64,000 bases of DNA from Candidatus Omnitrophota bacterium (lineage in GTDB: Bacteria; Omnitrophota; Omnitrophia; Omnitrophales; JACROU01). The notes beneath the pieces are model-generated. The model made no database searches and had not been told where the DNA came from. It worked only from the letters and a program-made list of their open reading frames with translations. Positions 4,233 through 63,984 of the stretch are shown here, in pieces (position 1 is the first letter of the stretch; each line of letters starts with the position of its first letter). The stretch spans positions 14,612 to 78,611 of the forward strand of contig JAJDCD010000010.1 of NCBI GenBank assembly GCA_029261035.1, in the 5' to 3' direction. The position numbers and the translations under genes were made by a program.

Positions 4233-4273
4233 TCATTAATTTTGACTTTTTCCTTTTAACTTTTAAACCTTTC

Positions 4274-5319
4274 TTATGCGGCTTGTGCGACCTGTCTTGC
4301 TGCTAGTTCTTGTGATAACAGCTTATCAAGTAACTGTCGTACAGAAGCAACGTTGAAGAAGAACCGGTCTTCTTCACGGGCTAATCCGCGAGATACAAGC
4401 TCGTTAGCTACCGCTTCACCATAGCGTGCAATTTCACGGCCTGTTCGGAGAACCACAGGTTTAACCCAATCATAGCGGTCCAGAGCCTGTTTATCGTAAA
4501 CCACGTGGTAAACTCCTTTAGCACCTGTTACTCGATCACTTAAGTCGGTTTCTTCATTTGAAACAACTGTCATTGCTTTATTTGTATATTCTGGTTGTTG
4601 TCTCAAGTCGGTCACAATTCGGTTCAAGCTTAAACCTTGATCTGTGATCAAGATTACTTGCCCTCTAACACTCTCTGGAATAGAGATAGCTACATCTTCA
4701 GGAACATTAGCTATAACGAGTTGATGATTCTGGGTTCCAGAGAAGTAATTGATAAAGGCATCATCTTCATCTGGTGTTCCAATAAATGGCAAGTAAACTC
4801 CTGTGTTCCAATCTACAACCTGAACCGAAGGTGCTGGGGAAGCTCCAGAACCTACAATCATTTTATCCAAAGCTTCATTAAATCCAGTCGAAACGAGATC
4901 TGCCGCTGCTCGAACATCGCCCAACTGTGTTTGTAATTGTGTTAAAGCAAACTGCCCTTTTAAACCTTGTATAGAATCTAAAGCAGACAACAATGCACTT
5001 TGTTGAGAATCTGTCAAAGGAGCTTTTGCTACAGGAACACCTAAACTCTCAGCTGTAATTTCTGGAACAATTTTTTCTTTAACAGGTTTTTCACCTAAAG
5101 AAGATCCATAAATATCTTTTTCTTTAAGCGTATACAATTGAGCTATGCGTAGTTTATCTGCCTTTGAAACTAAATTATAACGTTTTCTTGGTAAACCAAA
5201 ACGTTGAACTGATTCACTTCTACCTGTCTTCTCAAAAACTTTTTTCAAGTATCCCGATTTGTCTCTTTTAGTAAAATCAGAATCCGTCCATTTTTTGACA
5301 TCAATTCTTCTTTTACTGA
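4274..5319 (-). other. C-terminal globular domain (~348 aa) of unknown function after the last transmembrane cluster
   Basis: This is a non-coiled-coil, mixed-composition segment (VDWNTGVYLPFIGTPDEDDAFINYF ... VYHVVYDKQALDRYDWVKPVV). I recognise no motif in it. Confidence 0.4.
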
Positions 5320-8300
5320 TTTGAAAAACCGAAAGAATCACTGAGCCAGCACCGAACACAACATAACCCAAGACAGGAATCAACGTTAATGTTGGCATAA
5401 TTAAACTAACAGCTGCCAGGATAAGGCTGAACGAGCCTAATCCAAATAAAAGATGATACCCGTATTGCGTCATAAAGGCTTGCTGGCCTTGTCTGCGAGA
5501 GATTTCACCAAGCAATTGGATCAAATCATCGTTATAATGAACTCCTTCAAAATTTCGAAGGTACGTAATATAAAGAAGTGTTTGTTCTCTATCATTCAAT
5601 GCAAAATTATTCTTACTTCCATAATTGACAATACGTTGAACAACTTCATCTCTCATACCTGAAGTCCAAGCCCCTCTTTCCTCTTCCTGTTGTCTTAACC
5701 AGTACATAAATTCTTTCATAGCACCTTGATAACGCGCTTCTTCGTAAGATTCCCCTCTTCCAAACGAAGCCATAAACCAAGCAATTAAAGGTCCAAAAAT
5801 AAAGGAGTAAAGAATAATACCCCCAATAAAAATAAAGAGTGGGTCAATCAAACCAAGCATAACACCTGAAGCTATGATTAAACCAATATAAAGAACATTA
5901 ATCAGCTTCGCTTCACCCACTTCAAATTTATACGCATCCATCGGACTCAAACCTTTTTCCAACTGTTCTGCAACAGTCGCACTGGTAATCCACTTAAAGC
6001 CGATACCATAAAATGCTGCATGAATCGTTTCTTTAACAAAGTCAATTGAGATACGAATATTAATCAAAAGAATCGAAGTTGAAACAAACGTTTGGAATAT
6101 AGAGTCCTTCACAATTTGTTTTAAATCTCGCCCTAACTTAAACGTATTAAAGAAAAACAAGGCTCCCAATATCCACAAAAGATACGGTTTTACAAATTGA
6201 GAAAATAAATCCATCATCACCACGAGGGATTCTGCCGATTGATACTGAGATAAAAATGTATTAAATTCTGTCACCCAAACATTAAGAAAATTAATACTTT
6301 GAGAAGGGAGCGCTACATAAAAGACAAACAAAGCTCCTAAACCATAAAAAAGGTAGGATTTAAAACGATTAACATAATAATCTGGGTCTCCTAAACCTCT
6401 AAAGGTAAATTTTTCTACAATTTCATGTCTCCACCAAGTAACCCTATCGTGCTGCCCTAATCTATGTCCTATATGATACTCATTCCCTTCGTTGTCTGTA
6501 GCATAAAGACTAGACCAATTCAAAGGAACCCACCCCCACAACCCTTTACTTGGATGAACAATACTCACAGGCATCTGAGAAGACATCCCTTCCCAAATAC
6601 GTGCCATTGCAGGTTTAATAATTTGAGGCACTGCGATCATACCGGCCATAATACTTCCAAAAAGCACATACCCAATATAACGCGCTTTAGCAATCAACAA
6701 ACCTGGAATATTGGCAAACACCAAACCAAAAATCAGCCAGAGACCAAAGATTGATTCTCCCAAGAATCCATATAAAATGGTAGATAATTGAGGTGCAATT
6801 CCTCGAGGCAAATCACTCGGTTTTGCCAATCGTTCCCAAGCATCTTTAAATGTAAAAAGTCGAGGTTCTGCACGGAAAATACGGCCTAAATGTAGGGCAT
6901 GACTCATACGCCACAAAGTACCAACAAAACGATGCTCCTCAATTAATTGTGCTAAGTCACCTGTATCCCAACGAACCTTACGAGGCAATGCAAAGAAATA
7001 ACTATGCGGCAAAATCTCTAAAATAATATCTTTAAAATTAAACAGATCTATGCCTAAAATATGCATTAAGAAAGAAACATCTCCCAATTCTTCTTTTGTG
7101 AACCACTCTGACTCTGGTTTCGGTTCCCAAACAGCTCCATCATTTTGACGAGACCATAAATCTACATCTACCGGCTTCACCACACCTCGGTTAATAAAAT
7201 CATTCTCTATTGCTCTTTCTTTTAAGATTTTACGCGCTTTAGAACCATCTACTTGAGCTTCACGGAATAAACGAAATGCCATTGGAATCATGTAGTACTT
7301 ACGAATATATTCTCTCAACTGTGGGTTTCTCATATAATCAACCCAACGTTTTCTCCAAAAAATACGTCCTCCCCCACGGAAACCTTCTTGAATATCATGA
7401 CTAATAAAGTGTGCTGGAACCAACTCTTTAAAAATTACTTCTCCCATATAAAAAGGTGTGAAGACCATTTTTCCAAATGCAGGTGCTTTTGGTTCTTTTG
7501 GCGTACTTTGAATCCCTGTTTGAACCAATAACAAATGCCCTAATTGCCTCAATGCTTTCGATTCAAAACGAGAGTGGGTTGAAGTATGCGAATCTTCTTC
7601 TAATGGAGACGATTGATTATCATATGAAATTTGAGGCTGATGTACAGAAACTATATGTTTTGCCTTCATAGCAGCTATTGCATGCGCATAAACTTCTTTA
7701 GCTGCTCCAAACGTATAAGGATTCTTATTATCCCCTTGTAATTTAAATTCTATTTTATGATCAGGTTCAATAGGTGTTCCGTATTGATCTTTAATTCGCT
7801 CACCATTAAAATTAAAGTAATCCAAGTCTGGCATTTCATATTCACTCTCTTCGCCCTTAACTTTATCTAAAGTTTGAATGTCATCTGAGGAGATCAATTC
7901 TTTTTTCACAATACGAATTTGGCCCTGATCATCTACTTCAATCGTATCAAACTGAATATTTCCATCATTATCAATATGAAGCCGAGGATCATTTAAAACA
8001 TCTTTTGAATTTAACATCCACCCTTCTTCATATTGACTTCCATCCCAATAGTAAATCTTACGAAGCGTTGATTCTCCTCGTTCATTTTCAAAAGGTTTGA
8101 CATCAATGTCTTTTTTCAATAGATAACTTTTTTCACGGCCTGTTTTTCCAATATGCAATCCGGCAACATCCGCAAAAACACCTGTTCTGACAAGTTCCGC
8201 TTCTTCCTCAGTGATATCCCCACTTTTTAACATTTCATCAATAAAGCTTGGGTCTTTAAAACCAAAATAACGATCAAATGGATTTCTTCGTTTATTCACT

Positions 8301-11300
8301 CCTGTAAAATAACCTCTCACAACACGTTGAACTTTGATTCCATCGAGAGTATCTGTTGCTGTCACCCACTGATCATTTTCATCGATTAAAATCTGGCCAT
8401 GCTCTGAAGTGGTACTCGCATTCATGGAGAAGTCCGTCAATGTTCTTGCTAGAATAGGAACATCTGGGTCTTTTTGAGTCAATTGAAAATCAGGGATTAT
8501 CTTTTCTTTTCCACCCTGATCTTTTTTGAGTGTTCTAAAATCACTCACCTTTTCTAAGGTGACTATCTGATCAGGATCCGATATTAATTCAGCACCCTCA
8601 TAAGATAAAGCTCCTGTCACCTCACCAACGGTATAACCGTCTCGACTATAAACCAACAATGCTTCACGGTAATCATCCGTCACCGCAACATGACTTGTTT
8701 GATTTTGAGCAAGTATATAATTACCATCACTCGTTGCATAATCTATGGAGTCTCTAGCCACATCCTCTTTGCTCTTCAAACCTTCATAGTCCACATCTAA
8801 CTCAATAACAACTCCATCTTTGTCAAAAGTTAACTTACCGTTATTAACTTCAAAACCATCTTTTTGGTGAACCAAAATGCCCGAAACCAAATTGCCCCCT
8901 TCCATATAATAAACATTTTGATAAAACTGCTCTCCACGATCACCTTGAAGTTGGGTTACATCCACAGGACCTTTAATTAAGTAACTGTTTGCATTTGCAT
9001 TGTAGTGAACCTCAGTAGCATGTTCTTCCATAGCTGCTTTTGCAATCGCATCCGCACCTTTAATCAAATATCCTTTTTGTTTTTTGAAGACATTGGCCTC
9101 TCGCTCAATTTCATCCACAACAACAGCGGTACCTTGTTCTGCAGCTTTTAATCGGGCAGCATTCTGAATATCTTGTTTATTGGCAATGCGAACCCCTCGA
9201 ATTGGGTCTGCTTCGATATTTTCTCTAATCGTAAAAGTTCCGTCCATTTCACGCTTAATCGCACCTTGGTTACTGGCAAGACCATGAACTTTTAATATAA
9301 CTGTTTGTCCAGGCTGTATTTCATCTAAGGTAATATTTCTACTCACCCTTCTTTTTTTGGATCCTTTTTTGCTCAACCTTGAGAAAAACCCTTCTTGAGA
9401 GAGAAAAGAATATTTTCCATATTCTAAAGCTTCTCCGAAAAGTTGAATCCTTCCATAATCACTATCGATTAAATCTCCTTCAACCAAAATCTGTTTTCCA
9501 TCTTTTGTTGCCATGTCTCCACGAGAAATATCAATTTCAGGCTCTTCATAGAGAACCGCTCTTTTTTCTTTTTTCAAAGCCTTTCCATGTTTCTTTAGTG
9601 GCTGTTCCATAACCACAAAAGTTTTAGCACGTTTTACTGATTTTTTTGTTTGCCTGTTATTTTCTGTTACAGTAGCAGATCTACGAGTTAAAACACCAAA
9701 GCCAGGACGACTCATAGAAAAAACAGATTCTTCAGATTTTGCACGATAAAGAATCTCTTTCTTATTCAACTTATATTTTTTTCTAGGAATAACAACGCTA
9801 CCTGTTGCGTCTAGTAAATTTCCTTTTTCATCTAAGTAATACACTTTTTTTACAACTTCATTTGTATTTGGATCTAATCGTTTTAAGATCACTTCCTGCT
9901 CAAAAACAAGGTCTGCTGTTAATGGCATTCTTCGGCCTTGATTATCATAAACAACTTCGTCTTTACGCGTTCTGAGCGTACCATCATCATTCCACCATAC
10001 CCATTGATCTTTTCTTAATATTGGCTTAGAGCTCGATGGTTTTGAACCTGGCTCATAAACATCTCCCTTAAACACAGGGTATCTTCTTTCAATCATTTGA
10101 CCTGGGTTTTTAGGATCTTCTGCCATACCCACAATAAAACGTTCCGTTTTAACTTGCTGAACATCCCACTCTTGCTTACTATTATCTGGACGTGTGATTT
10201 CTAGCGCATTTTGCTGTTCAATATAAAAACCTTCATCGTAAGCACCAAAAAGAGCCGCATCAATATCTCGATTATCTGTTTTAATTCGTTTATCTTCTCC
10301 ATAAGCCGTATAGGTTCTTGGATGCGTAACACCATATTCTAAAAATTCAAATGCGTTCTGTAACTGCCCCCATTTCACACCAAATTTTTCCAAGTGTTCT
10401 TGAACATAAATAATACGATCAGCACCAAAACGATCTCTCAATCGCTTAATTTCTTTAATTTCTGCTTTAAGAACATTTGGCTTACTCGTTCTAGAAACAA
10501 GCAATAGTTTTAAATGATCATTCGGATCCAGGTCTTCATGATCAATTACTTTTCTATCTTTTGTTTTAGGATCATAAACCTTATAAAAAGCAAGCTGAGC
10601 TAATTTAGAAACTTTATCTACAGGAACATAAGGTTGAAACAGAATGTGAAGGTCTGAAATCAAGTCCTCTCTTGCTAAAGTTAAAGCTTCATCTGCTTCT
10701 TCTTGAATCTCTTCTATTTGAGCTTGCATATCTTCTAACGAAATAATCCTATCTTCAAATCTTGATTTGGTTTCTGTCACTTTCCTTCTTTTATCAGAAT
10801 CGATTGTTTGTCTTCTTTTGACTAACTCCAACTTCGCTGCTTCTACGTTTTTTTGCAATTGGCGCACAATATCTTCTTGCACTGCATCATCCATGTTAAT
10901 AAATCGATCTTTAACGTCAGGAATCAAACTATCTACATAATCAATCCAAAAGGCTCTTGTCTTCTCATCGTAAGTACGCAGGTTCACTGTGTTCAAGAAA
11001 CTGGTTTTACTGTGAACCATCGCACTTTGCGCTTCTGATGGAGATTGCATCAAAATAGGAGTTGCCATTGCAGCGCTCCATCTCATTGATGCTCTATTGC
11101 TCTTCAACGCATACTCATCATAATCCAGTTTTTGTTTGCGATAAAAAATATTCATCAGAGTAAACATCATAATCTGTCTAAAAGGACGGTTAATATAGAC
11201 ATAGAAAAAGGAAGTCGCCCAAACAATCATTCCAGCAGACCAATTCGCATCCATACCCACAATCATATAAAAGTAAGCAGGAGCTGTTAAAAGAATATTA

Positions 11301-14300
11301 TCCAAAAGATTTGAGAATGTGGTTACAACATCTCTTTTGGCTTCAAAATATGCTATCTCTTTCGTTTCTGTAAAATAAGCCGTTGGAATCCAAGGAATAT
11401 ATCGAATAACAGCAACAACAAACTTTAAAGCACTGAATGCCAAGAACCCAGCAACAAAGGAGGCAAAAATGGCATAGCCCCAGAAATTAAAAGCGGTCAT
11501 GTTAACCACAGCAGCAAGCATCGGTTCTAGGTGAAACAAAGTATATAAACCACCCATCAAAGGAACAATAACAAGTGGACTGAGCCAAACCAAGAAACTC
11601 TTAACATTTCCAATTTTTATGGATTTTGAAGTTGGTTCTCTTTCAGGGATTTGAGGAAGATCTTCTTCAGCCACATCACCGTGAGGTAAAGACTGACCCA
11701 CACCCAAACTAGCACCTTCCGTCAAATCCTTTTGAGTTTGAGCAACAAGTTCCGGACGTCCCAAACTAGAACCACTCCCTGTCTCAGGACCACCGGCACT
11801 CCCACTAGTTGCAGTCGACCCTGTATCATCTTTTTTCTTTTTCGTACCAAAAATTAGAAGGCTAAATAAAGCCCAAAGAGCTGCAAAAGCACCTAAAATC
11901 ATTCCCAATCCGCTCCAGAAGTTTTCTTTAATCCAACTTCTCCACTCGTCGGCTCGCGTTTCTCCTTGATCTACTGTTGGTAAACGCTTTTTAATTTCTT
12001 CCAATCCTCTTTCAGCGGCTAATTGGTCAATTTTTTCTTTTACCTGTGTTCGAATTGCTCCGTCCAAAGCATCTCTTAAGTACTCTGGAGAATAACCCAT
12101 AATTTCTCTTAAGTTTATTTTCTGATTCAAGTCTACTTGCGCTTCGTCTAGAAGAATCAACAACATTTGGTCATCTAATTTACCCTTTGTTGGTGTCACC
12201 TCTTCCTGAATCCGCTGAGCTCTATCGACTAATAAAATAAAGTTCACCACATCCAAATTACGTTTTTGAATTTGATCTAAAATCTGCCCTGCAGCTCGCT
12301 GCCTAGCAAGTATGATCGTTTCACCATCTTGAACCTGAACAAGCGTAGACATAGTTAAACCTTCTAAACGACTTGTTATAATACGAATATCTCTTTCTCT
12401 ATTCATATCCAAGACAGGAAGCTCAACTGGAGCTGTAATACTTGTTTTCAAAACCAAACCTAATCGACTGAGCAAGAATTCATTCACTTTAGATTTATTA
12501 CTTCCACTCAATGTAATCCCGAGGCCGCCGTTGCTTGTAGACGCTTCCATCACTTCGTTCACATTCTTAAGCAAACTAACCAAAATAGCAATATCCCCTG
12601 TTTGAACTTCTGCCTGCGTTCGAGATTTATCTACTTCAAGACCCGTTTCCAATAATCGATAAACCACATGATCTAAAGCATTGGTTACAACAGGGATTTG
12701 ACCTTGTTGAATCGCTTGATTTAAGAAAATTTTAGCACGCTCTTCCAAAGCCTCTTCTCGAGCTTCGGCTGTTCTACCAGGAACCGGCCCTAAATCTTTT
12801 AGGATTTCTTTTACGTATTCTTTTAAAACAAAGAAACTGCGAAACTGTTCCAAAGTCCAGCCATCATTGTCTTTTTGAGTCACATAAAAAGCAATTTGTC
12901 CCTTTTCTTTCTCTGTTAAATCACTCAATGTTCTAGGAGTCTGGCCATCAGGTACATTTCGATTTACAATTTCAAGGTAGATATTTCCAATTTGAATTCG
13001 ATCAATATAAGAAATATTAATCGCATCTCTAGGGGTAAAACCATTGGTCAATACTTGAGAGTATAAAAACCCTAATACCTTACTACCAATTTCCGCTTCT
13101 GCTTGACCCAGGTCCAACTGCTCACGAATAGTGTCAATCTCTGCTTTTCTCTCAACTGAAGTTCCTGCTGCTGCATATTCTGTATTTAATTCTCCATTTA
13201 AGTTGATCAACTCTGCTCGAATGTTAGCTTCGATTTGAGTTTGAAGCACACGGCTATCTCTTTCATTTTGCTCTTTAATTTTATACTCCGTTAACCGTTC
13301 TAAACGATTTGCTTTTTCTTGATCTCTCAGTTCTTTACTCTCTCTCAATGCTTTTCGGTAATTTTCAGCATTCTGCTCGTGCGCTGCTTCCGCTCTACCC
13401 ATACCCGTTCTGTCTCTTAAAATTCGGGCCTCAATGCGATCCAAAGACCTCTGTAACTGAGCAGAATCAATACTGCCGTCTCGTTCAAACATTTGTCGTG
13501 CTAAAAAGAATTCTAAAGTGCGTCGAATACCGCCCACTTCTTCAATAATCGTTTCTTGTTCTCTACGCACTTGCATATTGTAGTAAGCATGATCTCCACG
13601 CTCTTCAACCAAATTTGAATCTGTCACTTTCTTTGCATACTCAAATAAGTAATGTTGATAGTATTCTGCACGAGTAACAGGGGTATCACTTCCAGGAATA
13701 ACAAAGTACTCTGATTTATCTAGAGCACCCCCAAAAGTATTAAATTCTGTTGTTAATTTTCTATAAATCACACCATAGAGATTTACAGTGTCATTAATAT
13801 CTCTTAAGGTAATATCTCCTTTAAGACGAGATTCAAAATTTCCACTCATCTGAAAATCTTGAACACCTTTTTGCCAATAAAACTCAGACCAACGAGACCA
13901 GTCCCCTTCATAGAAATCATTAATCTGTCCTCCAATTTGAGCAAAATCCAAAAAGTAAACACGGCTACTATTGGCCCGTAAATTTCTGTTGGTTAATTCT
14001 TGAATCTTACGCACCGCATTAAAGTAAACTTGAATTTTCTTTCGAACATAGTCTCTCTTGATATTTAATTCTTGCTGATAGCGTTGATTTTCATCTCCGG
14101 TATCGATTCCAACAGCTCTTTCGATGATATTGGCTCTATGCCTAAAAAAGTCTCTTTCAAAATCAATCACTAAACCGGAGGTAGCACCGTCTGTCAATCT
14201 TGGAATATCCAGTTCTCTGACATTGCCAAAACCCTCAACTTGAAGCAATTGCTGAACCACATCTCCTTCAAGACGTTTTATTTGTGCTTCCATTTCCATA

Positions 14301-53301: not shown

Positions 53302-53365
53302 TCAACTCAAATAACCCTAACCTATTTCCCTATATAAACTTAAAGCACCCCCATTCGGGCACGGG

Positions 53366-53393
53366 CCCTATTTAGGCCCGGGCCTAAATAGGG
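53366..53393. promoter_or_regulatory. 28-bp perfect palindrome ccctatttaggcccgggcctaaataggg in the spacer between the giant genes
   Basis: The reverse complement is identical. It is centred on the aggcccgggcct core that also occurs at 400..411, 430..441 and 53464..53475. It is preceded by gggcacgggccc. Candidate operator or structured RNA. Confidence 0.5.
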
Positions 53394-53536
53394 CTGTAAT
53401 CAATAAACTTTTGAAATTAAAAGAGTTAAAAAATCCCACCTTCCAACCCGGAAACCCTCAAACAGGCCCGGGCCTAAAAAACGTGTCACAATGATACATT
53501 TAGTTATTTGAGATAAGCTTATTTTGAGGTGCTTTT

Positions 53537-53559
53537 GGGACAGTCCCTTAGACTGTCCC
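53537..53559. repeat. gggacagt / cccttag / actgtccc hairpin, third member of the gggacagtccc family
   Basis: 8-bp stem with 7-nt loop. It starts 6 nt after the stop codon of the 3,472-aa gene. No U-tract follows on the coding strand. Confidence 0.7.
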
Positions 53560-53565
53560 TTTAGA

Positions 53566-56500
53566 CTATGCTGCGATTTGGACGGCTTGTTTGGCTCTGA
53601 GGCGCTCTAGGAGGTATTCTGCTAGAGCTACGATTGAGTTGTAATCCATGACGACATATCCTTCTGAGACTTGCATATCGACTGGGTATTGCTGTGCGAA
53701 GCTCTTGATGGAGCTCAACCCCCCATTACGAGAGACGAAACGACCTGCTTCGAGCATGAATTTGTGAACTAATTGTCTATTAGCTTGGCTCATACGAGGC
53801 TCATTCTCACCGTTATATAAGAGTGTAACAACCTTTGGTGATATCTCCTCTTTACTGACATAGATAATATTAGATGGTTTAGCTCCATCCTCTACCAAAC
53901 CAGCAACGGTCTGAGTCACATCTTTCTCAGATTCTAACTGAACGGCGGCTCTTAACGTTTCTGCTTGAGGTTCGAACAATTGTCCCAACTCGGTATTGGC
54001 AAACTGCGCCATTGCTTGTTCTTTAACTTCAGGAGAAACATGAAGAATATGAACCGTGTCGGTATCTGGAGAAATTCGATCTAGAAGAACCCCAATGTCA
54101 GTTACCGAACTAGCATAGTCCGAATCGACCACAACCACGCCTTGAATATCCAATCCTGGTATTTGTCTTGCGTTAACCGCATCTACGCTTCTGCCAGTTT
54201 CAATATTTTTCATTTCATTTAAGAGTGCTGCCAGAGAAGCAAGATTCAACGTTTCTAATTGAGTTTGAGCTTGGTTATAAGCAATCCACGGAGATTGAAC
54301 ATGGCCACCCAAACGTTGAATCGATCGTTGAAGATCAGCAACATTTTCTGCAACTAAACCACGAACCGCAAAGAGTGCTGAAGCATTTTCAAAATTATTC
54401 GCAGGAATCTCTTCTGCCAATTCTTTAACGACTTCTTTTTCTCTATTGCTAAAGATTGGATCTAATCCACTTGCTCGACGACGAATATCAATTGCTTTCA
54501 TCACTCGATATTGAGATTGATACGCAAACGATTCATCCAAAGCAATTTGGCGGAACACATCTAAGTTTTGAGAAAGCTCCTTAAATGAAACGTTATCGAT
54601 ATTATCAATATGAGTTGCTTCATGAACTAAGGTTGCAACCAATTCTGCAAAAGCACGGTCGCGGGCTACACCTTCTAGGTCTCTAATTTGTTGAATACGT
54701 GTTTCACTCACAACAATCGTTCGATCTGAAAGTCGTGCATAAGCCACAATACCTCCTTGGAACAAACTGTCATCCAAAGGATTGCCAACAACAATACGAT
54801 TTACTTTCTCAATTGCTGTTTTAAAGCGGCTATCTAACTGAATCCCTAATCCCAAAGCTTCCCCTAAAACCTCCAAGTATTCTGGAACCACTTGAAGACG
54901 GTCTGCTTGAGCTGCACCTAAGCTTTGCGCAGAAACCATAGAGATAGAATCTAATAAAGAGGACTCTTTAGATTCAAATAGGACTTGTTGTCCTAAGCTA
55001 TCCGCTTCTGCTTCATACTCTTCTGCTTGTCCTCTATAAATAGAAGCCTGAGCATCCCATTCGGTTCGTTCTATTTCATCTTCTGCAAATTCATCTCGAA
55101 GGCGTTCATATGTTTCTGCTAGAACTGTATAAATTTTAGAACGCAACACGTCGATTTCATCATCCTGAAATCCAGGAATAAAATCTAAAGCTGCTTCGAT
55201 AAGCTTGCTAGCCTCTTCATAATCTTCAACACCTTCAACGATTGTTTCTTTTTGATTTTGAGCAACCAAAGCAGCTGCTCCTGACTGTATTTGTTTAGCC
55301 GCATCCACATACCACGCAACTACGGTATTCACATCTGGTTTTTTAACTTCTTTGAGCCAAAATTTCAAACCTTCTTCAAATCGATTTTGAGCCGATTGAA
55401 TTTCGTCAACAGCATCTTCCCAATCTCCATTTTTAGCATGCATATTCGCATCCGTTATATGCTGTACCATTGCATCCGCAGTCTGTGTGGCCATATTCAC
55501 AATTTCTTCAACAGCTTCCGGTGTCACCTCTTCATTCACCCACTGAGCTTTAGTAAAACCTACCTGTGCTGCTTGTGTCATTTTTTGAATTTGCTCTTCA
55601 TTACCACCCGCTCTTTCTAACATCAATGTCTTTACTGTTTCATTTCTGGCAATATCGACAAAGTAGCGGGACAATGCTGGTGGCAAGACTCCTTTTCTAT
55701 CAAAATGGATCGCTTGTTCGTAATCAGCATCTACCCTCTTAGCAATCTCTTTTGTTTTTGTCGCAGTGATAGACAATTCAATTCTGGCTAAATACATCTC
55801 TTTAATCGAATCTGCCAATTCTGATTGGTTCAATTCTGGGTCTAACTCCTGAGCCTCTTCCAAAACTTCCATATGTTTGTTTAATTCCTCAAGAGAAACA
55901 TTATCCGATTGGATCATTTGGTTAAAACTATTCACAGCTGTTTGTGCTAATTCCAGTGCCACAAACTGATCTAAAGAACCAGGAAGAGCTTCTTTAGAAT
56001 CAAATGCTTTAGCTTGACTGTAATAATCTTGAGCTTGTTTCTCAATCCTATTTCTTTTCATCATACGAATTCGATTCGTTTGATTTTTTTGATTTCTAGC
56101 TTTCATCGCCAAAGCACTAAACCAATCACGAATAAATGCTGAGGACTCTCCTTCACTTAAGTTAGAATTAATTTTTGTAGCCTCTTCGATTTGTTCATTA
56201 ATTCCGTCAACAATAGAACCCTCTGAGCCAGCAATCAAATCTCGTATACTCATTTGATCTACTTGCATATCAATAAATTGATCTGCCATTGCTCCCAATT
56301 GGGCAAATCTAGGATCACTCTTCATCTTATCTTTCTCAGGCTGCCTTAATTTTTGATCCAATTTCTGAATCATAGTATCAGCAAACGATGGGTCAATTGT
56401 TTGGATACGACTGTAAGCATCTTGTGCTAAAGTTTCGTTTCCTTGTTTAGAAGCCATTCGAGCTAAAGTTAAGTTCACTTGAACCCATTCTGTTTGAATA

Positions 56501-59500
56501 TCTTCTTTTTGAGATTCATCCAAACGAACCGCTTCTTCAAATAAGCTGTGCGCTTTTTGATAAGTCTCAATTGATTCATTCTGTTTCTTTTTCTGAGACT
56601 GTAATTCTTGCGCTGTAAGCACGAGAGCTCTAGCTTCTTCAATATTTCTCAATGCAATTAAAGCTTCCATGGTTTCAGGCACCTGCACACGATTCGCAGC
56701 TTCCGCTTGTTGCTTCCAATCATTAAACAAGTCTCTCGCTGCAGCTTCATCTACTTGGTATTGCTGTTTAATTTGATCTTCTAATCGTTGAAGATTACGT
56801 TTTGTTTCCAAACGGGCTTCTAAAAGCTCTGGAGAGAAATCTTGTCCCGGCCATCCAGCTACCGTAACGGTATCCCGAACCAAATCAGCAATCACCGTAA
56901 AACCAAAACGATCAAAAATATCTCGAACTGCTTTTTGGTCTTCATCCGTGCGAAGCGCTTTTGCAATTAAGCTTTCACCCTTGGTTACAACCGACGGATC
57001 ATTATCAATTGTGTTTTGACTGACATAAGCCAACAACTCTTCCACAACCTGTTTTTCGGTGTAGCCGGACTGGATCAATTGCTTCTTCGCTTCCTCATAT
57101 CCATTCAACTCTTTCACTAACTCATCAATTTCAGTTCTTTCTTCTTCCGTTAAATTTGTAAAGTAATGCGCATGATTCAATTCGTGAACAATATTTTTAC
57201 GAGCCATCTTTAATTTATTCATCATGCCCTTGTTCTCATTTACGTTCATCTCATCACTCAATGCATCTGAGAATGAAATAAATCCATAACCATCATTCGC
57301 AGCAAAAAGATCCATTACCATTTTTGAACCATCGATAATTTTTTCAGCTACAATTTCTTTTGCTTTTTGAATCGATTGATCATAAGTTAAAGACGTATCT
57401 TTAACACGTTCAATAGTCGCAATTTTTTGAAGCATTTCTTTCAGCTTAGCATCCTTATCTTCATTCAATCGAGAGGCTAATTCTTGAATGGTTACATTAG
57501 ATGCTAAATCACGATAGCCGAAACGTCCTTCATCTCCATCGAGCTCTCTCTTGTTCACAAAGAATCCTAGAGCCGCTTCCACACCAAATTCCCATTGGTC
57601 GCCTATATATAACTGTGTATAGACCAATTTTTCATACATTTCTGGTTGAGCTTCTCTATCGATACGAACAGAACTCTTCAAGAAATTACCTAAGCTTTGT
57701 TTGAGGCCTCCTGTAAATAAAGAATCCCCTGTACTGCCTGCTTCTTGCATTTCTGCAAGGTAGAACAACTGAGCTCGACGCAATACTTTAGCTTGAACAT
57801 TTCCTTGAGCATCACTTACGAAATAATAATAATCTCCACCTTTCGCAATGCGTTCTCTCCAAAAACTAGGTTCCTCTTCCGTTGCCGCTGTTTTAGCTTC
57901 AAAGAAATCTTTTTCTTGTTGTGTTAATTCAGAAAGATTCACTTCCTGAATTCCTCCGAGAGAACCTCTTAATTCCGTCATTACGAGCATACGATGAATA
58001 TCCGCTTCATTCACTGTTTCTTTAAACTGCTCTACCAACTCAGCCTCATCCAATATCTCTCCAGGCTTCCGCGTCGCTTGCTGTTGTATATAAGCTTCTC
58101 TTCTTTGTTGCGTACGCGCTTCGCTGGCCAATACGTTAATAGAATTAGCCGTTTTTTCATTAAATTGAGTTCGGTATCGATTAAAAGATTGAACTATGGT
58201 TACCACTTCATCCAATATCTCATCTCGTAACGTTCTTGGTTTGGACTGAATTCGGTTAATCAATTGTCCGAGCCAATCAAAACCTCTAAGAGAGTTCACC
58301 GCAGCTTCAATTAAGTCATCACTTCTTTCCAAATCAAGACCTAGTTCATTCGCTTTTGCACGAACCAATTTTACATTCACATCAAAAGCCGCTGGGTTTT
58401 CTTCGATCACAACCGCAGCATTTTCTGCGTCTTTAAGAATCTGCAACTTCTCTTGCTTCTCTTCAACACCTTCTAATGCAGCCATAATCTCAAAGAGTCT
58501 CAACTGTCTTGATGTTGCTTCTCCACGACGAATTTTTTCTCTAATTTCTTGAGAAGTTTCTATAAATTCATCGTTGTTGATCAAGCGAATTAAATTTCCA
58601 AGTTCTGCTGCTGTAATTGGATTTTCTCGAACTCGACTTTGAAGCAGCTGATCAAAAATAGCCGTCTTAGCGCTCATCAAACTACTCGCCCGATCCACAA
58701 AATGGAATTGGTAATATTCTTCATCCAAAAGTTTATTGATAAGTTTATGGACTGAATTCATATCCATGTCCCCACCAAAATTTCTTTTATTCACAATTTC
58801 AAAGGCAATAGCACCGGCATTGTTACGAGCCACCCCTTGTTTTCCAGCTTTAGAACGAGTGTAATGGGCAAAGGTTTCTTTCCAGTCAATCCACTCATCC
58901 TTACCCATTGCTTTGAGTTTCAGTTTAAGATTTCGAATGTAAGTTTTATCAAACCCAAAACCCAACAAGACACGGTTGCGTTTCACAAACTGAATAGCCG
59001 TATCCAATATTTGATAATCTGTGGATTTAATTTCTTGAATCAGTGTTTTTACTTCATCTGTTGCTCCCGAAAGAAAACGTCGATCATAAGCAGCTTTTAA
59101 ATTTTGAATCTGGCTCTGAAGCACCGCCTTTTTAGCAGCATCTGCTTCTGATTGTAAACGCGCTTCTTTTTTCAAGATCGTCATCCAATCTAAAATCATC
59201 GCTTCTTCTAGGGTATCGTTTTCTGCGATACGTTTTCCAACAACGACACGATCCGAATCCTTAGCATCTTTTTCTAACTTGCCTAATGCATCAAATAACG
59301 TTAAATCTTGTCCTGGTCGAGAGTGACCCAAAACTTCTTCCGCAATATCCCCTTCCATTGAAGAAACGAGTACTTCGTTTACAAAATCTTCTCCAAATGC
59401 TTTTTTGAGATAAGCCAAACGTTCTAAGTAGTGAGAAAACACACGAACCTTTCTCTTACGTCCTTCTCCGGTAATACTACTCGTATCCCGACCTTCCCCT

Positions 59501-62500
59501 ACCTTCGTGGCTACTAAGAGCAATTCGAATTGAGAAACAATTCCTTTTCTCTCTAAGACATCTAAGAAGTTTTCATTAATCTCTTTGTCATAATCCGCAT
59601 CCTTAAGCTGTAACAACGAGTTTAATCCATCCATCACATCCGTAATACGACTGGATTCAAATTGAGAACGATATTGTCTTAAACCTTGAAAGGCATATCC
59701 TTCATTAAAAGCTAAAAGAATAGCTTCTTGAATTTTTATTAAATTCATCTTATCTTTCTTGCTAAGATCTCCAGATGCTTTTCTAACTTGCTGCTTTTCA
59801 CCATCAACCTCAATTTCTTTCATCAATAATTCTGTTAATGCCTTACGCATACTTCGTTCATCTCTAACAGAAATATTTAAGTTAATCGCTTTTGCGTTTG
59901 CTTCTTCCGTATACTGAGTATTAATACGACGATATTTATCCCAAATAAATTTAAGGTCAGGATCTCCCAATAATACCTGTTGATTATGCTTTCCTTTTTC
60001 GGAACCATCAAAAGCAAAGATTAAGTTGTCATCTGTACTGCTCGTGGCTTGTAATTTTGACTGCAATTTCCCACCTGTTAATTCACGTGTTAAAGCTAAT
60101 TCCTTATCCAATATAGCTAAATACTTCGGATCTAAATCAATGGCATCATCAAAAAAGATACGCGCTTGTTTTAAATCAAATTCTGCAGAATCCGGAACCG
60201 CACGGTACTTACCAAGGTAAAGCAATCCTTGCAATGCTTTAAGTTGAGCCATGAAGGTTCGATTTAAACCCTTAAGTTCTTTCTCTGTTTCTAAAAGCTT
60301 AATCGCTGTAACCAAACGCTGCGTTGCTTTCTCGTAAGTTAAATACGCTTCTTTCCTTAAATTTAGAGACTCTTCTTCGTTGTCCGTTAACTCAGCAGAG
60401 TCTAATAAATATTCTGCTTTTGCTTTCATGACGTCGACACGGCGTTTCATTTCTAAAACTCCGGCTGTCAAACGTTCTTGTTTGAGATCTCGACCCCTCA
60501 CAAGAGCTTCTTGATGAAGCTGCTGAAGAATATTGTTTAGTGTCACACTCTCTCCAGAAACAAGCTCAATACCCACACGGTTAGCCATCTGAGTAAAAAC
60601 GCTATAATCGTTTAACAAAATAGCGTCCATCACGTCAAGAAAACGTACTTGAGTCTGAAGTCCAAAAACCTGGATCAAAGCTTCAATTTCTTTATAACGT
60701 TGGTATAGTTTTTCTTTCTCTTCTTTTCGTGTTTCATCTAAATTAAATAAATCATTAATTTTCCGAACTCGTTCACTCTCACGCGGACTGAGATCAGAAG
60801 ATTTCGAGCCCGAAAGATTTAACACTGCTGTAATCAATCCATCAACCGTATCTAAGAAGTTTTCTTCCATCATACCCTGAACCTTAGACACCGTTGCATC
60901 AACATCATTCGATAGCTGATCTAACACAATCGCTTGATTAATTTTCAATTCTTTATACTCAGTAGCCCCCTCAAGTTCTAATCCTTGCATCCATTCTTCA
61001 AAACTTTCAAGACGATTTAACTGTTCTTGATCAAGTCGTGAATCAATCAATCCATATATGTTGATATTTAAAGCATCCAAGTCAAAACCCTGATTATTGA
61101 GTCGTTTTTTCATTTCTTCTACAAAACGGATACTCAACAATTGATGTTTTGGATACTTTTTAGCAAAGTATGTTTCTAAGTATTTATCTAAGGTATGTTC
61201 TTGTTCTCTAACACCCATTTGCTTTAACTTCGCTTTATACTCTTCATTAATCCACTTATGCAGTTGGAATACAGCAGCACTGCGTTGATCTACACGAGCT
61301 AAAGTTCGAATAAAACTATTCTTAGCCTGATCTTTTTTGTTTTTATTCTTCACTGCTGTGACATAAGCAGGGAGTTCTAACTCTATTTTCTTCTGAGTCG
61401 TGTCAATACGAGATCGCCCCTCATCCTGTAACGTTAATATAATTTCTTTTGTTCTTAGATTAGCCACATCCACACCATAACCACTCTGAGGCGTACCAGA
61501 AACCAGAGTAACCAGATATTCCAAACCATCAATCGTTACTTTTTCGCCATCTTTTATTTTATTCCCTTCAAACGTAAGGTCACCCTCAGCATTAATATCA
61601 AACTCCACAGTTTCTTTGACAGGGTTTGGTGTGTTTACTTCCACTTTTCTCTTTTCATTCACAACGACGTCTGTAGCTGTAACTACTTCTGTCTTTAAGA
61701 GAACGTTTCCTGTTTCCTTATCCAATTCAAATCTCATTTTCTGACCGGCAATGGTGACATCCGTACCTTCAGCAAGACGACGAGCCATATAAGTCATAGG
61801 ATTAATCAAGGTCGTCGCTCCACTTAACACAGCTCCAAGACCTGCTCCAAAACGAGTAGTGTTCTTCCACTTTTTCCATATTTGTTTTGCTGATGCCGTA
61901 GCTTCACCAATCACAGAACCTTCTCTTAAACCAAAGATGGCAGGGCGATACAAATACCCACCCTCTTTTTTGTCTTGTTTCACTGTAATTTTAGGTGTTT
62001 TATCTGCTTTTTCTGTAGAACGTCTAGCGGCAATCAATAATTTCGCATGCAGCTCATTTAGCGCTTTTTGATTTGGTTTTCCTTGAAGATAAGCAGCAAC
62101 CGCATCCATCAAGGCAATACGTGTTGGAGCATCTTCAATTTTTTGTAAGGATGACTTCAAGGTTCTGAGCACTTCATTTTCGCTCACAACACCTAAACGA
62201 TAGATAAAAGAAGCGGAGTCACTTCGAGTCAGCGATTTATCAAAAACGGTATCCTCCGTCCAAGATTCTAGATAAGCAAACGAAATTGGAATGAACGAAA
62301 GCATACGGTTTACTATCAATCGAGGCCATTTTGTCAAACTCTTCCATAGAGAGCTATCCCCTTCGGCCATTCTCCAAAGAGCTTCTAAACGACCTTCTGC
62401 ATTTTGAGTTTGTAATTCATACTCACGAAGCAAATTATTTCTCTTCAAATAAGTATGGAATTGTTGCCAACCAGCCAATACCTTCAGCTTTGCTGTACCA

Positions 62501-63984
62501 GAAACAAGTCCTGCATCCAAAGTTTCTTTAAAACGTTTACGATCATCCGAAGTGGGTACTGCTTGCAACAACAAACTACTTAAAGCTAAGTTGTATCTAT
62601 TTTTCTCACCACTCGAAAGTGCAGGTGCATTCAAACGAATATTATCAATCACTCCGTCTACATCTTTAAACTTAAGACGAGTAGGATCATTCCACCATTG
62701 TTTTGCTTTTAAGAGAGGCGACGCTAAGAGTTGGCTTATTTTCTTTGTTCCTCGATTAAAACGTGTAAGCACAACGCTTTCTTCTTGGTAGTCTCTAAAT
62801 TGTTTTGTTAATTTTTGACGACCCGGTTTTTTCCATATATTTGGTACAACGTTAAAACCAAAGCTTAATATCCAACGAGCGGGCGTTAAAATAAAAGCCC
62901 CTGTTTTCCAAACCCCATTCACTATTTTCTGGCCCATAAAACGAAGTAAACGCTTTTCTTCTCGAGCTTGCCGTAGAGCATCCACAGCATTTCTCGCTAA
63001 TTTGCTCAATACATGCCAAGTGCTGTACGGAATAAAACTTGCTGTTAAAATAAATCCCTTAGCACCCCATCTCCAAATACGGTCTTCAATAATATCGCCA
63101 AAAGAATCTCTTCCCAAACGAGGTATCTTTGCATACTTCGATTCTAGATTGAGATAATCATTTAATTTTTGATTCCAAGCAGTTAATCCAAGAGTTTCTC
63201 CCCACACTTCCTTAAAACTCTGCCAATCGGTAATACGGCCTTTAGTTTTTAGTTTCAATAATTGTCGATCTAACTTATCGATTTTATCTTTATTGTTCAT
63301 GGCTTGATAACGAGCTTTTTCTAATGCATCAAAGGCATTAAATTTTCTTTCAAGAAGAGCTCTTGTTTCTGTTTGGTACACAGGCATATTCTGATACAAC
63401 GCTCTTGCGATTTGAGCGTTGGAGTCTTCATGATGAAGTGCAAAGTTAATTTCTGCAGAATTTAAACGAACCTTAAGGTCGTCCACATTCAATTGATTTA
63501 CAGCACGCAATGATTCTCCAACGGTAATAAGCTTAGCTAAAATCTTAAGGTCATCCCCTTCTTTCTTTTCATCCATATCCTGAGTAGAAATAATCCCACT
63601 TGAAATGAGCGCAAAGACAAGTTGAACAACATCTTGATCATCTGGAGCACCAGGAGCACCCTGATATTGATAATCAGAACCAGCGGATTGAAGTAATAAG
63701 TTCAAGGCTTCTTGAACCTCTTGACTGTGAGCATCTTTCTTATCAAAGACACGACGCACTTCTTTTATAAGCTCAACGACACGCACACCATCTTGAACGA
63801 GGTCTGCTTTGTCCAAACCACGGTTATAATCTACAAGACCTAAGTTTCTTAACTCGGTATCGATCGTGGCCTTAGCTTCTTGAGTAAAACCATCCTTCGC
63901 ATTTAACTGATCCAATGTTTGCTGCATTTGCGCACGAGCTTCTGGGTTTGCTCCCATCAAGGAAACTTCCGGAAGGTCATTCAT
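53566..63984 (-). CDS. 3,472-aa giant protein with no signal peptide and two zincin-like HExxH motifs
   Basis: This is an uninterrupted 10,419-nt ORF. The start MNDLPEVSLMGANPE is at 63982..63984 and the stop TAG at 53566..53568. Motif 1 is NIVHELNHAHYF (HELNH at 57172..57186). Motif 2 is ATLVHEATHIDN (HEATH at 54610..54624). Both are preceded by hydrophobic residues and followed by Glu-rich helices. The protein is mostly alpha-helical or coiled-coil in character. Confidence 0.85.
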   Translation of the reverse strand: MNDLPEVSLMGANPEARAQMQQTLDQLNAKDGFTQEAKATIDTELRNLGLVDYNRGLDKADLVQDGVRVVELIKEVRRVFDKKDAHSQEVQEALNLLLQSAGSDYQYQGAPGAPDDQDVVQLVFALISSGIISTQDMDEKKEGDDLKILAKLITVGESLRAVNQLNVDDLKVRLNSAEINFALHHEDSNAQIARALYQNMPVYQTETRALLERKFNAFDALEKARYQAMNNKDKIDKLDRQLLKLKTKGRITDWQSFKEVWGETLGLTAWNQKLNDYLNLESKYAKIPRLGRDSFGDIIEDRIWRWGAKGFILTASFIPYSTWHVLSKLARNAVDALRQAREEKRLLRFMGQKIVNGVWKTGAFILTPARWILSFGFNVVPNIWKKPGRQKLTKQFRDYQEESVVLTRFNRGTKKISQLLASPLLKAKQWWNDPTRLKFKDVDGVIDNIRLNAPALSSGEKNRYNLALSSLLLQAVPTSDDRKRFKETLDAGLVSGTAKLKVLAGWQQFHTYLKRNNLLREYELQTQNAEGRLEALWRMAEGDSSLWKSLTKWPRLIVNRMLSFIPISFAYLESWTEDTVFDKSLTRSDSASFIYRLGVVSENEVLRTLKSSLQKIEDAPTRIALMDAVAAYLQGKPNQKALNELHAKLLIAARRSTEKADKTPKITVKQDKKEGGYLYRPAIFGLREGSVIGEATASAKQIWKKWKNTTRFGAGLGAVLSGATTLINPMTYMARRLAEGTDVTIAGQKMRFELDKETGNVLLKTEVVTATDVVVNEKRKVEVNTPNPVKETVEFDINAEGDLTFEGNKIKDGEKVTIDGLEYLVTLVSGTPQSGYGVDVANLRTKEIILTLQDEGRSRIDTTQKKIELELPAYVTAVKNKNKKDQAKNSFIRTLARVDQRSAAVFQLHKWINEEYKAKLKQMGVREQEHTLDKYLETYFAKKYPKHQLLSIRFVEEMKKRLNNQGFDLDALNINIYGLIDSRLDQEQLNRLESFEEWMQGLELEGATEYKELKINQAIVLDQLSNDVDATVSKVQGMMEENFLDTVDGLITAVLNLSGSKSSDLSPRESERVRKINDLFNLDETRKEEKEKLYQRYKEIEALIQVFGLQTQVRFLDVMDAILLNDYSVFTQMANRVGIELVSGESVTLNNILQQLHQEALVRGRDLKQERLTAGVLEMKRRVDVMKAKAEYLLDSAELTDNEEESLNLRKEAYLTYEKATQRLVTAIKLLETEKELKGLNRTFMAQLKALQGLLYLGKYRAVPDSAEFDLKQARIFFDDAIDLDPKYLAILDKELALTRELTGGKLQSKLQATSSTDDNLIFAFDGSEKGKHNQQVLLGDPDLKFIWDKYRRINTQYTEEANAKAINLNISVRDERSMRKALTELLMKEIEVDGEKQQVRKASGDLSKKDKMNLIKIQEAILLAFNEGYAFQGLRQYRSQFESSRITDVMDGLNSLLQLKDADYDKEINENFLDVLERKGIVSQFELLLVATKVGEGRDTSSITGEGRKRKVRVFSHYLERLAYLKKAFGEDFVNEVLVSSMEGDIAEEVLGHSRPGQDLTLFDALGKLEKDAKDSDRVVVGKRIAENDTLEEAMILDWMTILKKEARLQSEADAAKKAVLQSQIQNLKAAYDRRFLSGATDEVKTLIQEIKSTDYQILDTAIQFVKRNRVLLGFGFDKTYIRNLKLKLKAMGKDEWIDWKETFAHYTRSKAGKQGVARNNAGAIAFEIVNKRNFGGDMDMNSVHKLINKLLDEEYYQFHFVDRASSLMSAKTAIFDQLLQSRVRENPITAAELGNLIRLINNDEFIETSQEIREKIRRGEATSRQLRLFEIMAALEGVEEKQEKLQILKDAENAAVVIEENPAAFDVNVKLVRAKANELGLDLERSDDLIEAAVNSLRGFDWLGQLINRIQSKPRTLRDEILDEVVTIVQSFNRYRTQFNEKTANSINVLASEARTQQRREAYIQQQATRKPGEILDEAELVEQFKETVNEADIHRMLVMTELRGSLGGIQEVNLSELTQQEKDFFEAKTAATEEEPSFWRERIAKGGDYYYFVSDAQGNVQAKVLRRAQLFYLAEMQEAGSTGDSLFTGGLKQSLGNFLKSSVRIDREAQPEMYEKLVYTQLYIGDQWEFGVEAALGFFVNKRELDGDEGRFGYRDLASNVTIQELASRLNEDKDAKLKEMLQKIATIERVKDTSLTYDQSIQKAKEIVAEKIIDGSKMVMDLFAANDGYGFISFSDALSDEMNVNENKGMMNKLKMARKNIVHELNHAHYFTNLTEEERTEIDELVKELNGYEEAKKQLIQSGYTEKQVVEELLAYVSQNTIDNDPSVVTKGESLIAKALRTDEDQKAVRDIFDRFGFTVIADLVRDTVTVAGWPGQDFSPELLEARLETKRNLQRLEDQIKQQYQVDEAAARDLFNDWKQQAEAANRVQVPETMEALIALRNIEEARALVLTAQELQSQKKKQNESIETYQKAHSLFEEAVRLDESQKEDIQTEWVQVNLTLARMASKQGNETLAQDAYSRIQTIDPSFADTMIQKLDQKLRQPEKDKMKSDPRFAQLGAMADQFIDMQVDQMSIRDLIAGSEGSIVDGINEQIEEATKINSNLSEGESSAFIRDWFSALAMKARNQKNQTNRIRMMKRNRIEKQAQDYYSQAKAFDSKEALPGSLDQFVALELAQTAVNSFNQMIQSDNVSLEELNKHMEVLEEAQELDPELNQSELADSIKEMYLARIELSITATKTKEIAKRVDADYEQAIHFDRKGVLPPALSRYFVDIARNETVKTLMLERAGGNEEQIQKMTQAAQVGFTKAQWVNEEVTPEAVEEIVNMATQTADAMVQHITDANMHAKNGDWEDAVDEIQSAQNRFEEGLKFWLKEVKKPDVNTVVAWYVDAAKQIQSGAAALVAQNQKETIVEGVEDYEEASKLIEAALDFIPGFQDDEIDVLRSKIYTVLAETYERLRDEFAEDEIERTEWDAQASIYRGQAEEYEAEADSLGQQVLFESKESSLLDSISMVSAQSLGAAQADRLQVVPEYLEVLGEALGLGIQLDSRFKTAIEKVNRIVVGNPLDDSLFQGGIVAYARLSDRTIVVSETRIQQIRDLEGVARDRAFAELVATLVHEATHIDNIDNVSFKELSQNLDVFRQIALDESFAYQSQYRVMKAIDIRRRASGLDPIFSNREKEVVKELAEEIPANNFENASALFAVRGLVAENVADLQRSIQRLGGHVQSPWIAYNQAQTQLETLNLASLAALLNEMKNIETGRSVDAVNARQIPGLDIQGVVVVDSDYASSVTDIGVLLDRISPDTDTVHILHVSPEVKEQAMAQFANTELGQLFEPQAETLRAAVQLESEKDVTQTVAGLVEDGAKPSNIIYVSKEEISPKVVTLLYNGENEPRMSQANRQLVHKFMLEAGRFVSRNGGLSSIKSFAQQYPVDMQVSEGYVVMDYNSIVALAEYLLERLRAKQAVQIAA

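Follow-up and report, generated by a model that had tools for sequence, protein, structure and literature searches.

Two giant genes on an Omnitrophota contig

The 64,000-nt window analysed here, from contig JAJDCD010000010.1 of a Candidatus Omnitrophota bacterium (assembly GCA_029261035.1), contains exactly four open reading frames (ORFs) of at least 150 amino acids (aa): a methyltransferase, ClpB and two co-oriented giants, which we term gene A and, downstream of it, gene B (Table 1). Both giants translate without internal stops and together encode 19,670 aa; the ORF list and translation thus agree with the arrangement, positions and lengths given for the pair in an earlier first-pass annotation, made from the sequence alone. 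We consider it very likely that B is an Omnitrophota-type giant envelope protein.

Reading the giant frames as an artefact—a misassembly, a pseudogene or chance open frames—has virtually no probability. The 16,198 and 3,472 codons are stop-free in DNA of 38% GC, every 2-kb window across the locus has a GC content of 0.36–0.42 and a negative GC skew, and conserved domains and orthologues were found for the encoded proteins. The frames also show a strong, non-random avoidance of cysteine that is specific to the reading frame: A has none in 3,472 residues and B one in 16,198, where position-specific base composition predicts approximately 41 and 213. ClpB and the methyltransferase next door do contain cysteine. 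The lone cysteine of B sits in its signal peptide; Cys15 was considered as part of a lipoprotein lipobox and rejected, the preceding K-T-I being unsuited.

The 5′ end of A is open at the window edge. Its ATG lies 16 nt from the end of the window, preceded by 15 in-frame nucleotides without a stop, and has no clear Shine–Dalgarno sequence (the ClpB start has GGAGGTG). A may therefore be longer than its visible part, to which alone the absence of a signal peptide applies.

Table 1. Features of the window, with nucleotide positions counted from its first letter; L085 is the related metagenome contig introduced in the text, TM stands for transmembrane
Feature	Residues	Position	Strand	Basis or remark
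Gene A, at least 3,472 aa, open at window edge		53566..63984	minus	ORF list, translation
A module 1; HELNH at 2267–2271 (nt 57172–57186), then E..AY..Q	~2200–2400	56785..57387	minus	HEMNH in L085
A module 2; HEATH at 3121–3125 (nt 54610–54624), then DESFAYQSQ	~3060–3260	54205..54807	minus	Paralogue of module 1
Best-conserved part of A: module 2 and mixed helix/strand C-terminal region	3015–3472	53569..54942	minus	L085 identity
A–B spacer, 695 bp		52871..53565	minus	31.5% GC
Hairpin GGGACAGTC-TAAG-GACTGTCCC		53559–53537	minus	Directly 3′ of A stop
Two perfect DnaA boxes TTATCCACA		53300–53292, 53271–53263	minus	29 bp apart
Sigma70-like promoter TTTACA-18-TATAAT with TG extension		53186–53157	minus	11/12 positions; 287 nt upstream of B
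Gene B, 16,198 aa		4274..52870	minus	ORF list, translation
B Sec-type signal peptide, cleavage after VLA	1 to ~37	52760..52870	minus	Start and signal conserved in L085
B head domain	~50–545	51236..52723	minus	Homologue search, alignment, AlphaFold2 model
B acidic helix-favouring region	~600–7600	30071..51073	minus	Composition, Pfam
B TM cluster 1, ~6 helices	7699–7931	29078..29776	minus	Hydrophobicity
B glucanase-type block	~8287–8860	26291..28012	minus	Pfam, PDB sequence search
B single OEP (TolC-type) repeat	10811–11049	19724..20440	minus	Borderline Pfam score
B TM cluster 2	13651–13815	11426..11920	minus	Hydrophobicity
B TM cluster 3, at least 4, probably more helices	~15368–15850	5369..6769	minus	Hydrophobicity
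B C-terminal block, ~164 aa		4277..4768	minus	32% identity to C-terminus of family member P0001
ClpB		1226–3838	minus	ORF list, Pfam
Methyltransferase		474–1175	plus	ORF list, Pfam

The head domain and architecture of gene B

The N-terminus of B consists of a basic stretch and a hydrophobic helix leading to VLA|Q, directly followed by a head domain with IQDAH, EG and TGGFH motifs. A full HMMER search with residues 1–1200 against 1.84 billion cluster representatives matched 7,809 of them, 6,344 at E ≤ 1e-10 and 2,103 at E ≤ 1e-30. The top 150 matches cover query residues ~10–560 and begin no further than approximately 80 residues from the target N-terminus; an IQDAH-like motif is present in 140 of these and a GGFH-like motif in 147. 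Among these targets the median length is 2,280 aa and the longest reaches 7,853 aa, with many clipped by contig ends. All named members examined are Candidatus Omnitrophota or Omnitrophica, bar one labelled ‘Endomicrobiales’ and one labelled ‘bacterium’.

Across an alignment of 53 homologues, D89, H91, Q97, E119, G120 and G170 are invariant and T481-G-G-F-H485 is nearly so, with H485 at least 90% conserved. The AlphaFold2 (AF2) model of residues 1–620 made with this alignment (predicted local distance difference test score, pLDDT, of 85, rising above 90 for the core at 50–540) has six strands and flanking helices, with an all-helical insertion of ~290 residues between the two halves of the core. 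We assign this model, with moderate confidence, to the α/β fold of the TIKI/TraB/ChaN/erythromycin-esterase type. Members of this TIKI/TraB-PrgY-GumN/ChaN/erythromycin-esterase superfamily, which include Tiki, RRSP, EreB and EreC, Bcr135 and Bcr136, and HopBA1, use a 2His/2Glu site, in which the H85/E113 pair of Bcr135 and the H3902/E3930 pair of RRSP are both 28 residues apart (PMC6254334). H91 and E119 of B, matched by sequence position and spacing, are likewise separated by 28. D89 occupies the E-x-H position, with aspartate in place of the first glutamate, and H485 lies within a G-x-x-H motif.

From these features we take the head, with moderate confidence, to be a hydrolase domain of the TIKI superfamily that is exposed on the non-cytoplasmic side; that the domain is an active TIKI-type hydrolase we favour only slightly over the opposite. 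Both fold and candidate active site appear to be unreported. TIKI, TraB and erythromycin esterase do not feature in the two giant-gene papers checked for them, and West-Roberts et al. (bioRxiv 10.1101/2023.11.21.568195) write that N-terminal regions ‘generally lack identifiable domains’. Free-standing head-domain ORFs of 510–570 aa are present at six loci (L116, L127, L141, L144, L149 and L164; match near 9,400–10,000), and at four of these (L127, L141, L144 and L149) the free-standing copy comes after a giant co-oriented ORF. The head domain thus occurs both joined to giants and split from them.

Beyond the head, residues ~600–7600 contain many helix-forming residues and few prolines and glycines. 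Net charge per 500 aa is −26 to −46 in all blocks from 2,001 to 7,500, and −7 to −14 earlier. This region is predicted to be located outside the cytoplasm. The first-pass annotation had described B as a coiled-coil scaffold; composition does favour helix, but heptad periodicity is significant in just 5% of B windows (14–24% in residues 3000–5000), and we rejected a long coiled coil because of this weak signal. BLASTP and tile-by-tile phmmer found almost no internal repeats in B (a few weak tile matches), which rules against a repeat protein; the same comparisons gave no meaningful similarity between A and B.

Hydrophobic segments in B number at least 15 and fall into three clusters, with a further marginal segment at 570–588. 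Taken with the charged start, hydrophobic helix and VLA|Q site, these sustain the earlier call of a Sec signal on a multi-TM protein. Loops around TM cluster 1 alternate between 0 and 6–7 lysines and arginines; by the positive-inside rule, the chain after residue 7931 would lie outside the cytoplasm.

Scanned against Pfam in 5,000-aa, 1,000-aa and targeted pieces, B matches only PF10091 (Glycoamylase), PF11329 (DUF3131) and one PF02321 (OEP), leaving ~97% of its length without a match. NCBIfam has no match in residues 1–14,600, and a PDB sequence search gave none outside the glucanase region. Within that region, PF10091 scores 61–63 bits (cut-off 27) and PF11329 41 bits, and the best PDB matches are to the cyclization domain of TiCGS (8wy1, 4e-22), Agrobacterium Cgs (8rf9, 9e-20), GH192 EeSGL1 (8xuj, 2e-14) and GH144 structures (1e-8 to 1e-4). 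The matched entries are β-1,2-glucan enzymes (PMC10834661, PMC10901819, PMC12102758). A glycosidase-like module, as first proposed from the letters alone, is therefore real. The alignments span the C-terminal end of one (α/α)6 domain (8350–8475) and then run from the start into the middle of another (8496–8769), which we read as two tandem, partly divergent SGL-clan domains. Both are predicted to face outward of the cytoplasm. The block recurs, at 36% identity, in family member P0004 and at locus L094.

The OEP repeat covers 166 of 187 profile positions; its score, 26–32 bits when the stretch is scanned alone, drops to the 22-bit cut-off in the long scan. No second repeat was found in the flanks (B 10400–11500), even at E ≤ 5. 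Helix-rich sequence can inflate OEP matches, and the stretch is at best a TolC-like fragment: of the TolC-like module reported earlier, there remains a single repeat whose score is near the cut-off.

Gene A, its orthologue and the spacer

A scan with the head-domain alignment retrieved L085, a 328-kb Joint Genome Institute (JGI) metagenome contig (Ga0187892_10000019), in which an A orthologue (3..8396, up to 2,798 visible residues) immediately precedes a B orthologue in the same orientation. A residues 3015–3472 share 43% identity with L085 (E ~1e-100 to 1e-108) and residues 1230–2490 share ~25%; the N-terminal thirds of the two A proteins are not alignable. The L085 protein has, at residues 144–239 (nt ~432–719), a hexapeptide-repeat (LbH) transferase-like domain undetected in A. 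B residues 1–907 are 43% identical to the L085 protein (50% over the first 614); the two are collinear for these 907 residues, after which the orthologue is unrecognisable. L085 has a GC content of 52%, against 38% here, a difference of 14 points. Its A-type and B-type proteins contain 0 cysteines in 2,798 residues and 2 in 3,949, respectively.

The visible part of A has a hydrophilic N-terminus and no TM-like segment. HExxH occurs twice in it, where chance would give 0.03, and each copy is followed 26–50 residues later by E..AY..Q. Both are kept in the L085 orthologue (RKNxxHExNH and ATLVHEATH), and the H, E, H, E, A, Y and Q positions are invariant in an alignment of the four modules from A and L085. 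The HExxH motifs that had drawn attention at first pass are therefore two in number and conserved together with a downstream glutamate. We regard the modules as putative gluzincin-like metalloprotease modules. In the gluzincin family M1, the motif takes the form HExxH-x18-E, with the glutamate within NEGFAxY.

Searches of Pfam and NCBIfam returned no match in A, nor did a PDB sequence search. A single-sequence AF2 model of its C-terminus reached a pLDDT of 40 and was unusable. Protein searches with residues 1–1200 and 2173–3472 gave no matches, a weak negative given that scoring was confined to the 8,000 candidates with the most shared words and that the L085 orthologue was missed. Species-representative genomes and metagenomes yielded nothing in pattern scans with A.

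The spacer between A and B has 31.5% GC, against 37–42% in the genes, and contains hairpins, in line with its original description as a structured, AT-rich gap. The two DnaA boxes lie ~80–115 bp upstream of the promoter-like site and are the only perfect copies in the 64 kb, where 0.46 would be expected; the first overlaps the palindrome ATCCAC-AAGGAG-GTGGAT. The spacer was considered as a replication origin and rejected, since near-matches to the box do not cluster there and the GC skew does not turn. The pair of boxes is probably a regulator site rather than an origin. In L085, a toxin–antitoxin (TA) pair (HTH_17 and PIN_3; 8596–9292) lies between the orthologues, bracketed by long inverted repeats (CAGTAGGGGCGATCCCAACGGGTCGCCC...). 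The hairpin, the promoter-like site and this TA insertion make co-transcription of A and B doubtful; A is probably transcribed separately.

The window has five copies of the 11-mer near-palindrome GGGACTGTCCC (0.16 expected), in intergenic DNA only and usually as hairpin-capable pairs (1191–1217, 4028–4054 and 53537–53547). It is also present in an intergenic region of L085 (9776–9786) and as pairs in L162 and L163, and looks like a repetitive extragenic palindromic (REP)-like or terminator-like element shared across the lineage. An Rfam scan of the window gave no matches.

Downstream of B, the window holds only ClpB and the methyltransferase, and upstream of A it shows no gene. ClpB is at most 60% identical to its relatives (52–60%, from many phyla) among the best 80 loci from a pattern scan of 185,579 species-representative genomes, which suggests a poorly sampled lineage. 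No giant-gene synteny was found beside the ClpB homologues of these 80 loci.

The gene pair and its place among known systems

In 12 of 34 deduplicated loci the head-domain gene is closely preceded by an ORF of 1,500 aa or more in the same orientation. These upstream partners are unrelated to one another: RHS; a Ser/Thr kinase with TPR and HEAT; HAD with nucleotidyl transferase; HEAT with thioredoxin; or proteins with no Pfam match. In none of them was an A-type motif found. At some loci, two giants with head domains stand in tandem. At L081/L082 (1–34097), three consecutive co-oriented ORFs encode proteins of 7,835 aa (HEAT, thioredoxin), 4,698 aa (head) and 5,755 aa (head, radical SAM). Upstream giants with clearly cytoplasmic enzymes at other loci have 0.6–0.9% cysteine; the giant pairs of L102 and L122 are cysteine-poor in both partners, and pairs with cytoplasmic-type enzymes are not.

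Such heterogeneity indicates that an A-type partner is specific to one clade and not a general second component. A is probably a clade-specific accessory protein that is functionally linked to B; for functional coupling of A and B as such, we would go only a little short of an even chance. The general rule, in our reading, is a clustering of giant genes and not a fixed two-part machine. Two AcrB-type RND genes stand immediately before the giant gene at seven loci (L086–L089, L094, L095 and L106; 3–10 kb upstream), intriguing neighbours given the OEP-like repeat in B.

We think it reasonably likely, overall, that the window holds an Omnitrophota-type giant locus in which B is an exported, head-bearing envelope protein and A a linked accessory. 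A number of results weigh against this. Only one of about 80 loci, L085, has an A homologue, so the synteny rests on the sole close relative found; the next-closest relatives, at 38% head identity, have two AcrB-type RND genes upstream and no A homologue, and relatives with a still lower head identity also lack the A–B adjacency. ChaN (PF04187) matches the head below threshold (E = 0.057; 13.8 bits against a cut-off of 27.7), and Foldseek found nothing significant in the PDB for the head model, the best superfamily member being EreC at E = 0.09. For A, the best hit of a PDB profile search was a WLM protease at E = 1.2, with no peptidase family matched. Pfam detected no SecA_DEAD, C39, S8 or dockerin domain in B, none of the type II secretion system (T2SS), type IV pilus or glycoside-hydrolase neighbours reported for Omnitrophota giants lies within the window, and ClpB similarity gives no phylum.

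The first-pass annotation had gone further, joining A, as a soluble putative protease, and B, as a membrane-embedded coiled-coil scaffold, in a plausibly co-regulated machine for attack, adhesion or cell-wall remodelling that it did not recognise as described. In full, this model would make A a cytoplasmic metalloprotease and the pair a dedicated two-component machine of a new kind. Several observations speak for it: the A–B order is kept in L085, so that syntenic co-occurrence is found in the only close relative available; A has two conserved HExxH...E modules and, as far as it is visible, neither TM nor signal sequence; and the glycosidase-clan domains of B are genuine. We nevertheless regard the machine as unlikely. 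The system is not an undescribed one, for B falls in a described class, the very large family of known Omnitrophota giant envelope proteins. The lack of a signal peptide applies to the visible part of A and not to its open 5′ end. Solubility is doubtful, since 0 cysteines in 3,472 residues resembles exported proteins such as B, unlike the cytoplasmic-type giants. For the protease label, Pfam, PDB profiles and AF2 gave no peptidase family, fold or structure to which A could be assigned. The heptad signal is weak, the OEP repeat is single, and the genes are separated by a hairpin and a separate promoter-like site, to which L085 adds a TA cassette; in the other 33 informative loci there is no A-type partner.

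Several of these observations would suit A and B being mere neighbours in arrays of co-oriented giant genes, with the order in L085 a leftover of shared ancestry. Upstream partners of head-domain genes are heterogeneous, 12 of the 34 loci have a large co-oriented ORF in that position, the transcription signals of A and B look separate, and the L085 orthologues are parted by an inserted TA module. We find this explanation somewhat doubtful, because adjacency and orientation have survived divergence to 25–50% identity and a 14-point shift in GC, over which the order of unlinked genes would usually be lost, and because both partners show extreme avoidance of cysteine in both genomes.

How an accessory A and an exported B might work can be outlined from their predicted parts. 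B would be inserted co-translationally via Sec, its head and an acidic helical stretch of ~7,000 residues forming a coat or tether outside the cytoplasm. The six-helix cluster would pin the chain to the inner membrane and the further clusters would anchor its C-terminal part, leaving the two β-1,2-glucanase-clan domains and the OEP-like repeat to face the periplasm or cell surface. By analogy with the model published for Omnitrophota giants, B may hold hydrolases—one acting on peptide or ester bonds, two on β-1,2-glucans—against a host, a prey or its own envelope. A could itself be exported, through a pathway that the window does not show, or act on unfolded or exported B; its candidate roles are a maturation protease cutting B into working pieces and a co-delivered effector.

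Whether B is aimed at prey and not at self we judge evenly balanced. In one account, which we hold to be rather unlikely, B would act on its own envelope. It would span the periplasm as a tether, with its SGL-clan domains processing the cell’s own periplasmic β-1,2-glucans (osmoregulated or cyclic), its OEP-like repeat touching the outer membrane and its head hydrolase maturing envelope proteins. The enzymes matched by B act on bacterial periplasmic glucans (PMC10834661, PMC10901819, PMC12102758), a TM cluster followed by outward domains resembles membrane-bound Cgs, and the nearest relatives at 38% identity adjoin RND efflux genes, all of which would fit. Against this, Pfam detected neither a GT84 synthase nor a GH94 phosphorylase domain in B, 16,198 aa is far beyond the need of a periplasmic enzyme, and a Velamenicoccus archaeovorus giant, not aligned with B, has been linked to prey attachment (PMC10066038).

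A bolder proposal makes the TIKI-like head, as an active hydrolase, the hitherto unrecognised unifying module of an Omnitrophota giant superfamily, with cysteine-free A, bearing its two minimal gluzincin modules, exported in this lineage by a non-Sec route and paired with B as a surface weapon of two proteins; we consider it improbable. The head hydrolase would then mature or release pieces of giant chains, or attack host envelope proteins or esters, which we think equally improbable.

The reading that we favour, of an exported, head-bearing giant with a linked accessory, refines the present picture of Omnitrophota and does not change it; a 16-kAA (kilo-amino-acid) ORF will not surprise specialists. 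The giant proteins of Omnitrophota, tiny and probably predatory bacteria, are among the largest known, and their poor conservation and annotation make functions hard to assess. Added here are the head fold with its candidate site, the β-1,2-glucan link and one conserved giant pair. A domain common to thousands of proteins, with a candidate site at D89/H91/E119/H485, offers a handle for classification and biochemistry; outward domains of β-1,2-glucan type point to a specific polysaccharide substrate; and a conserved, cysteine-avoiding giant pair leads one to ask whether giant genes operate as sets.

Set beside characterized families, the modules of the pair show both likeness and divergence. 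The A modules resemble gluzincins (clan MA) at the motif level only, with an invariant HExxH and downstream glutamate in both; their spacing is longer than that of M1, and they match no peptidase family or structure. TolC and related outer-membrane factors have two OEP repeats in a protein of ~450 aa, against one inside giant B. Similarity to SGL-clan enzymes (GH144/GH189/GH192) is significant for 8wy1, 8rf9 and 8xuj, although the B domains stand ~8,300 residues into a 16,198-aa chain and have no GT84 or GH94 companion. The head differs from the TIKI superfamily in its ~290-residue helical insertion, its aspartate for the first glutamate, and scores that stay below all Pfam thresholds and are not significant in Foldseek; by sequence position and spacing, its conserved x-H ... 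E (+28) ... G-x-x-H constellation would correspond to the 2His/2Glu site, and it shares with RRSP of the MARTX toxins the situation of one module within a giant multi-domain exported protein.

Among giants, V. archaeovorus encodes a 39,678-aa protein, tied to prey-cell attachment by proteomics, and ORFs above 20 kb occur in most Velamenicoccia genomes (Seymour 2023, PMC10066038). Omnitrophota proteins reach 85,804 aa and include ‘Archaeovorin’ and ‘Dockerin-type’ classes (West-Roberts 2023, bioRxiv 10.1101/2023.11.21.568195). A later survey counts 5,761 proteins of at least 10 kAA; in a 916-protein catalogue 94% have TM helices or a signal peptide and 137 have no Pfam match, and 80% of sequence clusters are singletons (Nielsen & Lui 2026, bioRxiv 10.64898/2026.06.07.730766). 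With three Pfam families, none of them repeated, B sits poorly in every named architectural class. By Pfam, it differs from the Archaeovorin type in lacking SecA_DEAD and the glycosyltransferase, methyltransferase, NUDIX and peptidase set, from the Dockerin type in lacking dockerin and TSP3 (and internal repeats), and from Omnitrophota giants more widely in lacking SecA_DEAD, C39, S8, dockerin/TSP3, glycosyltransferase and NUDIX domains. It shares with these giants a length above 10,000 aa, a signal peptide, many TM helices and a very large gene next door. Like them it is mostly unannotated and fast-diverging, with an embedded carbohydrate-active domain, and the homologues of its head are themselves annotated as Omnitrophota.

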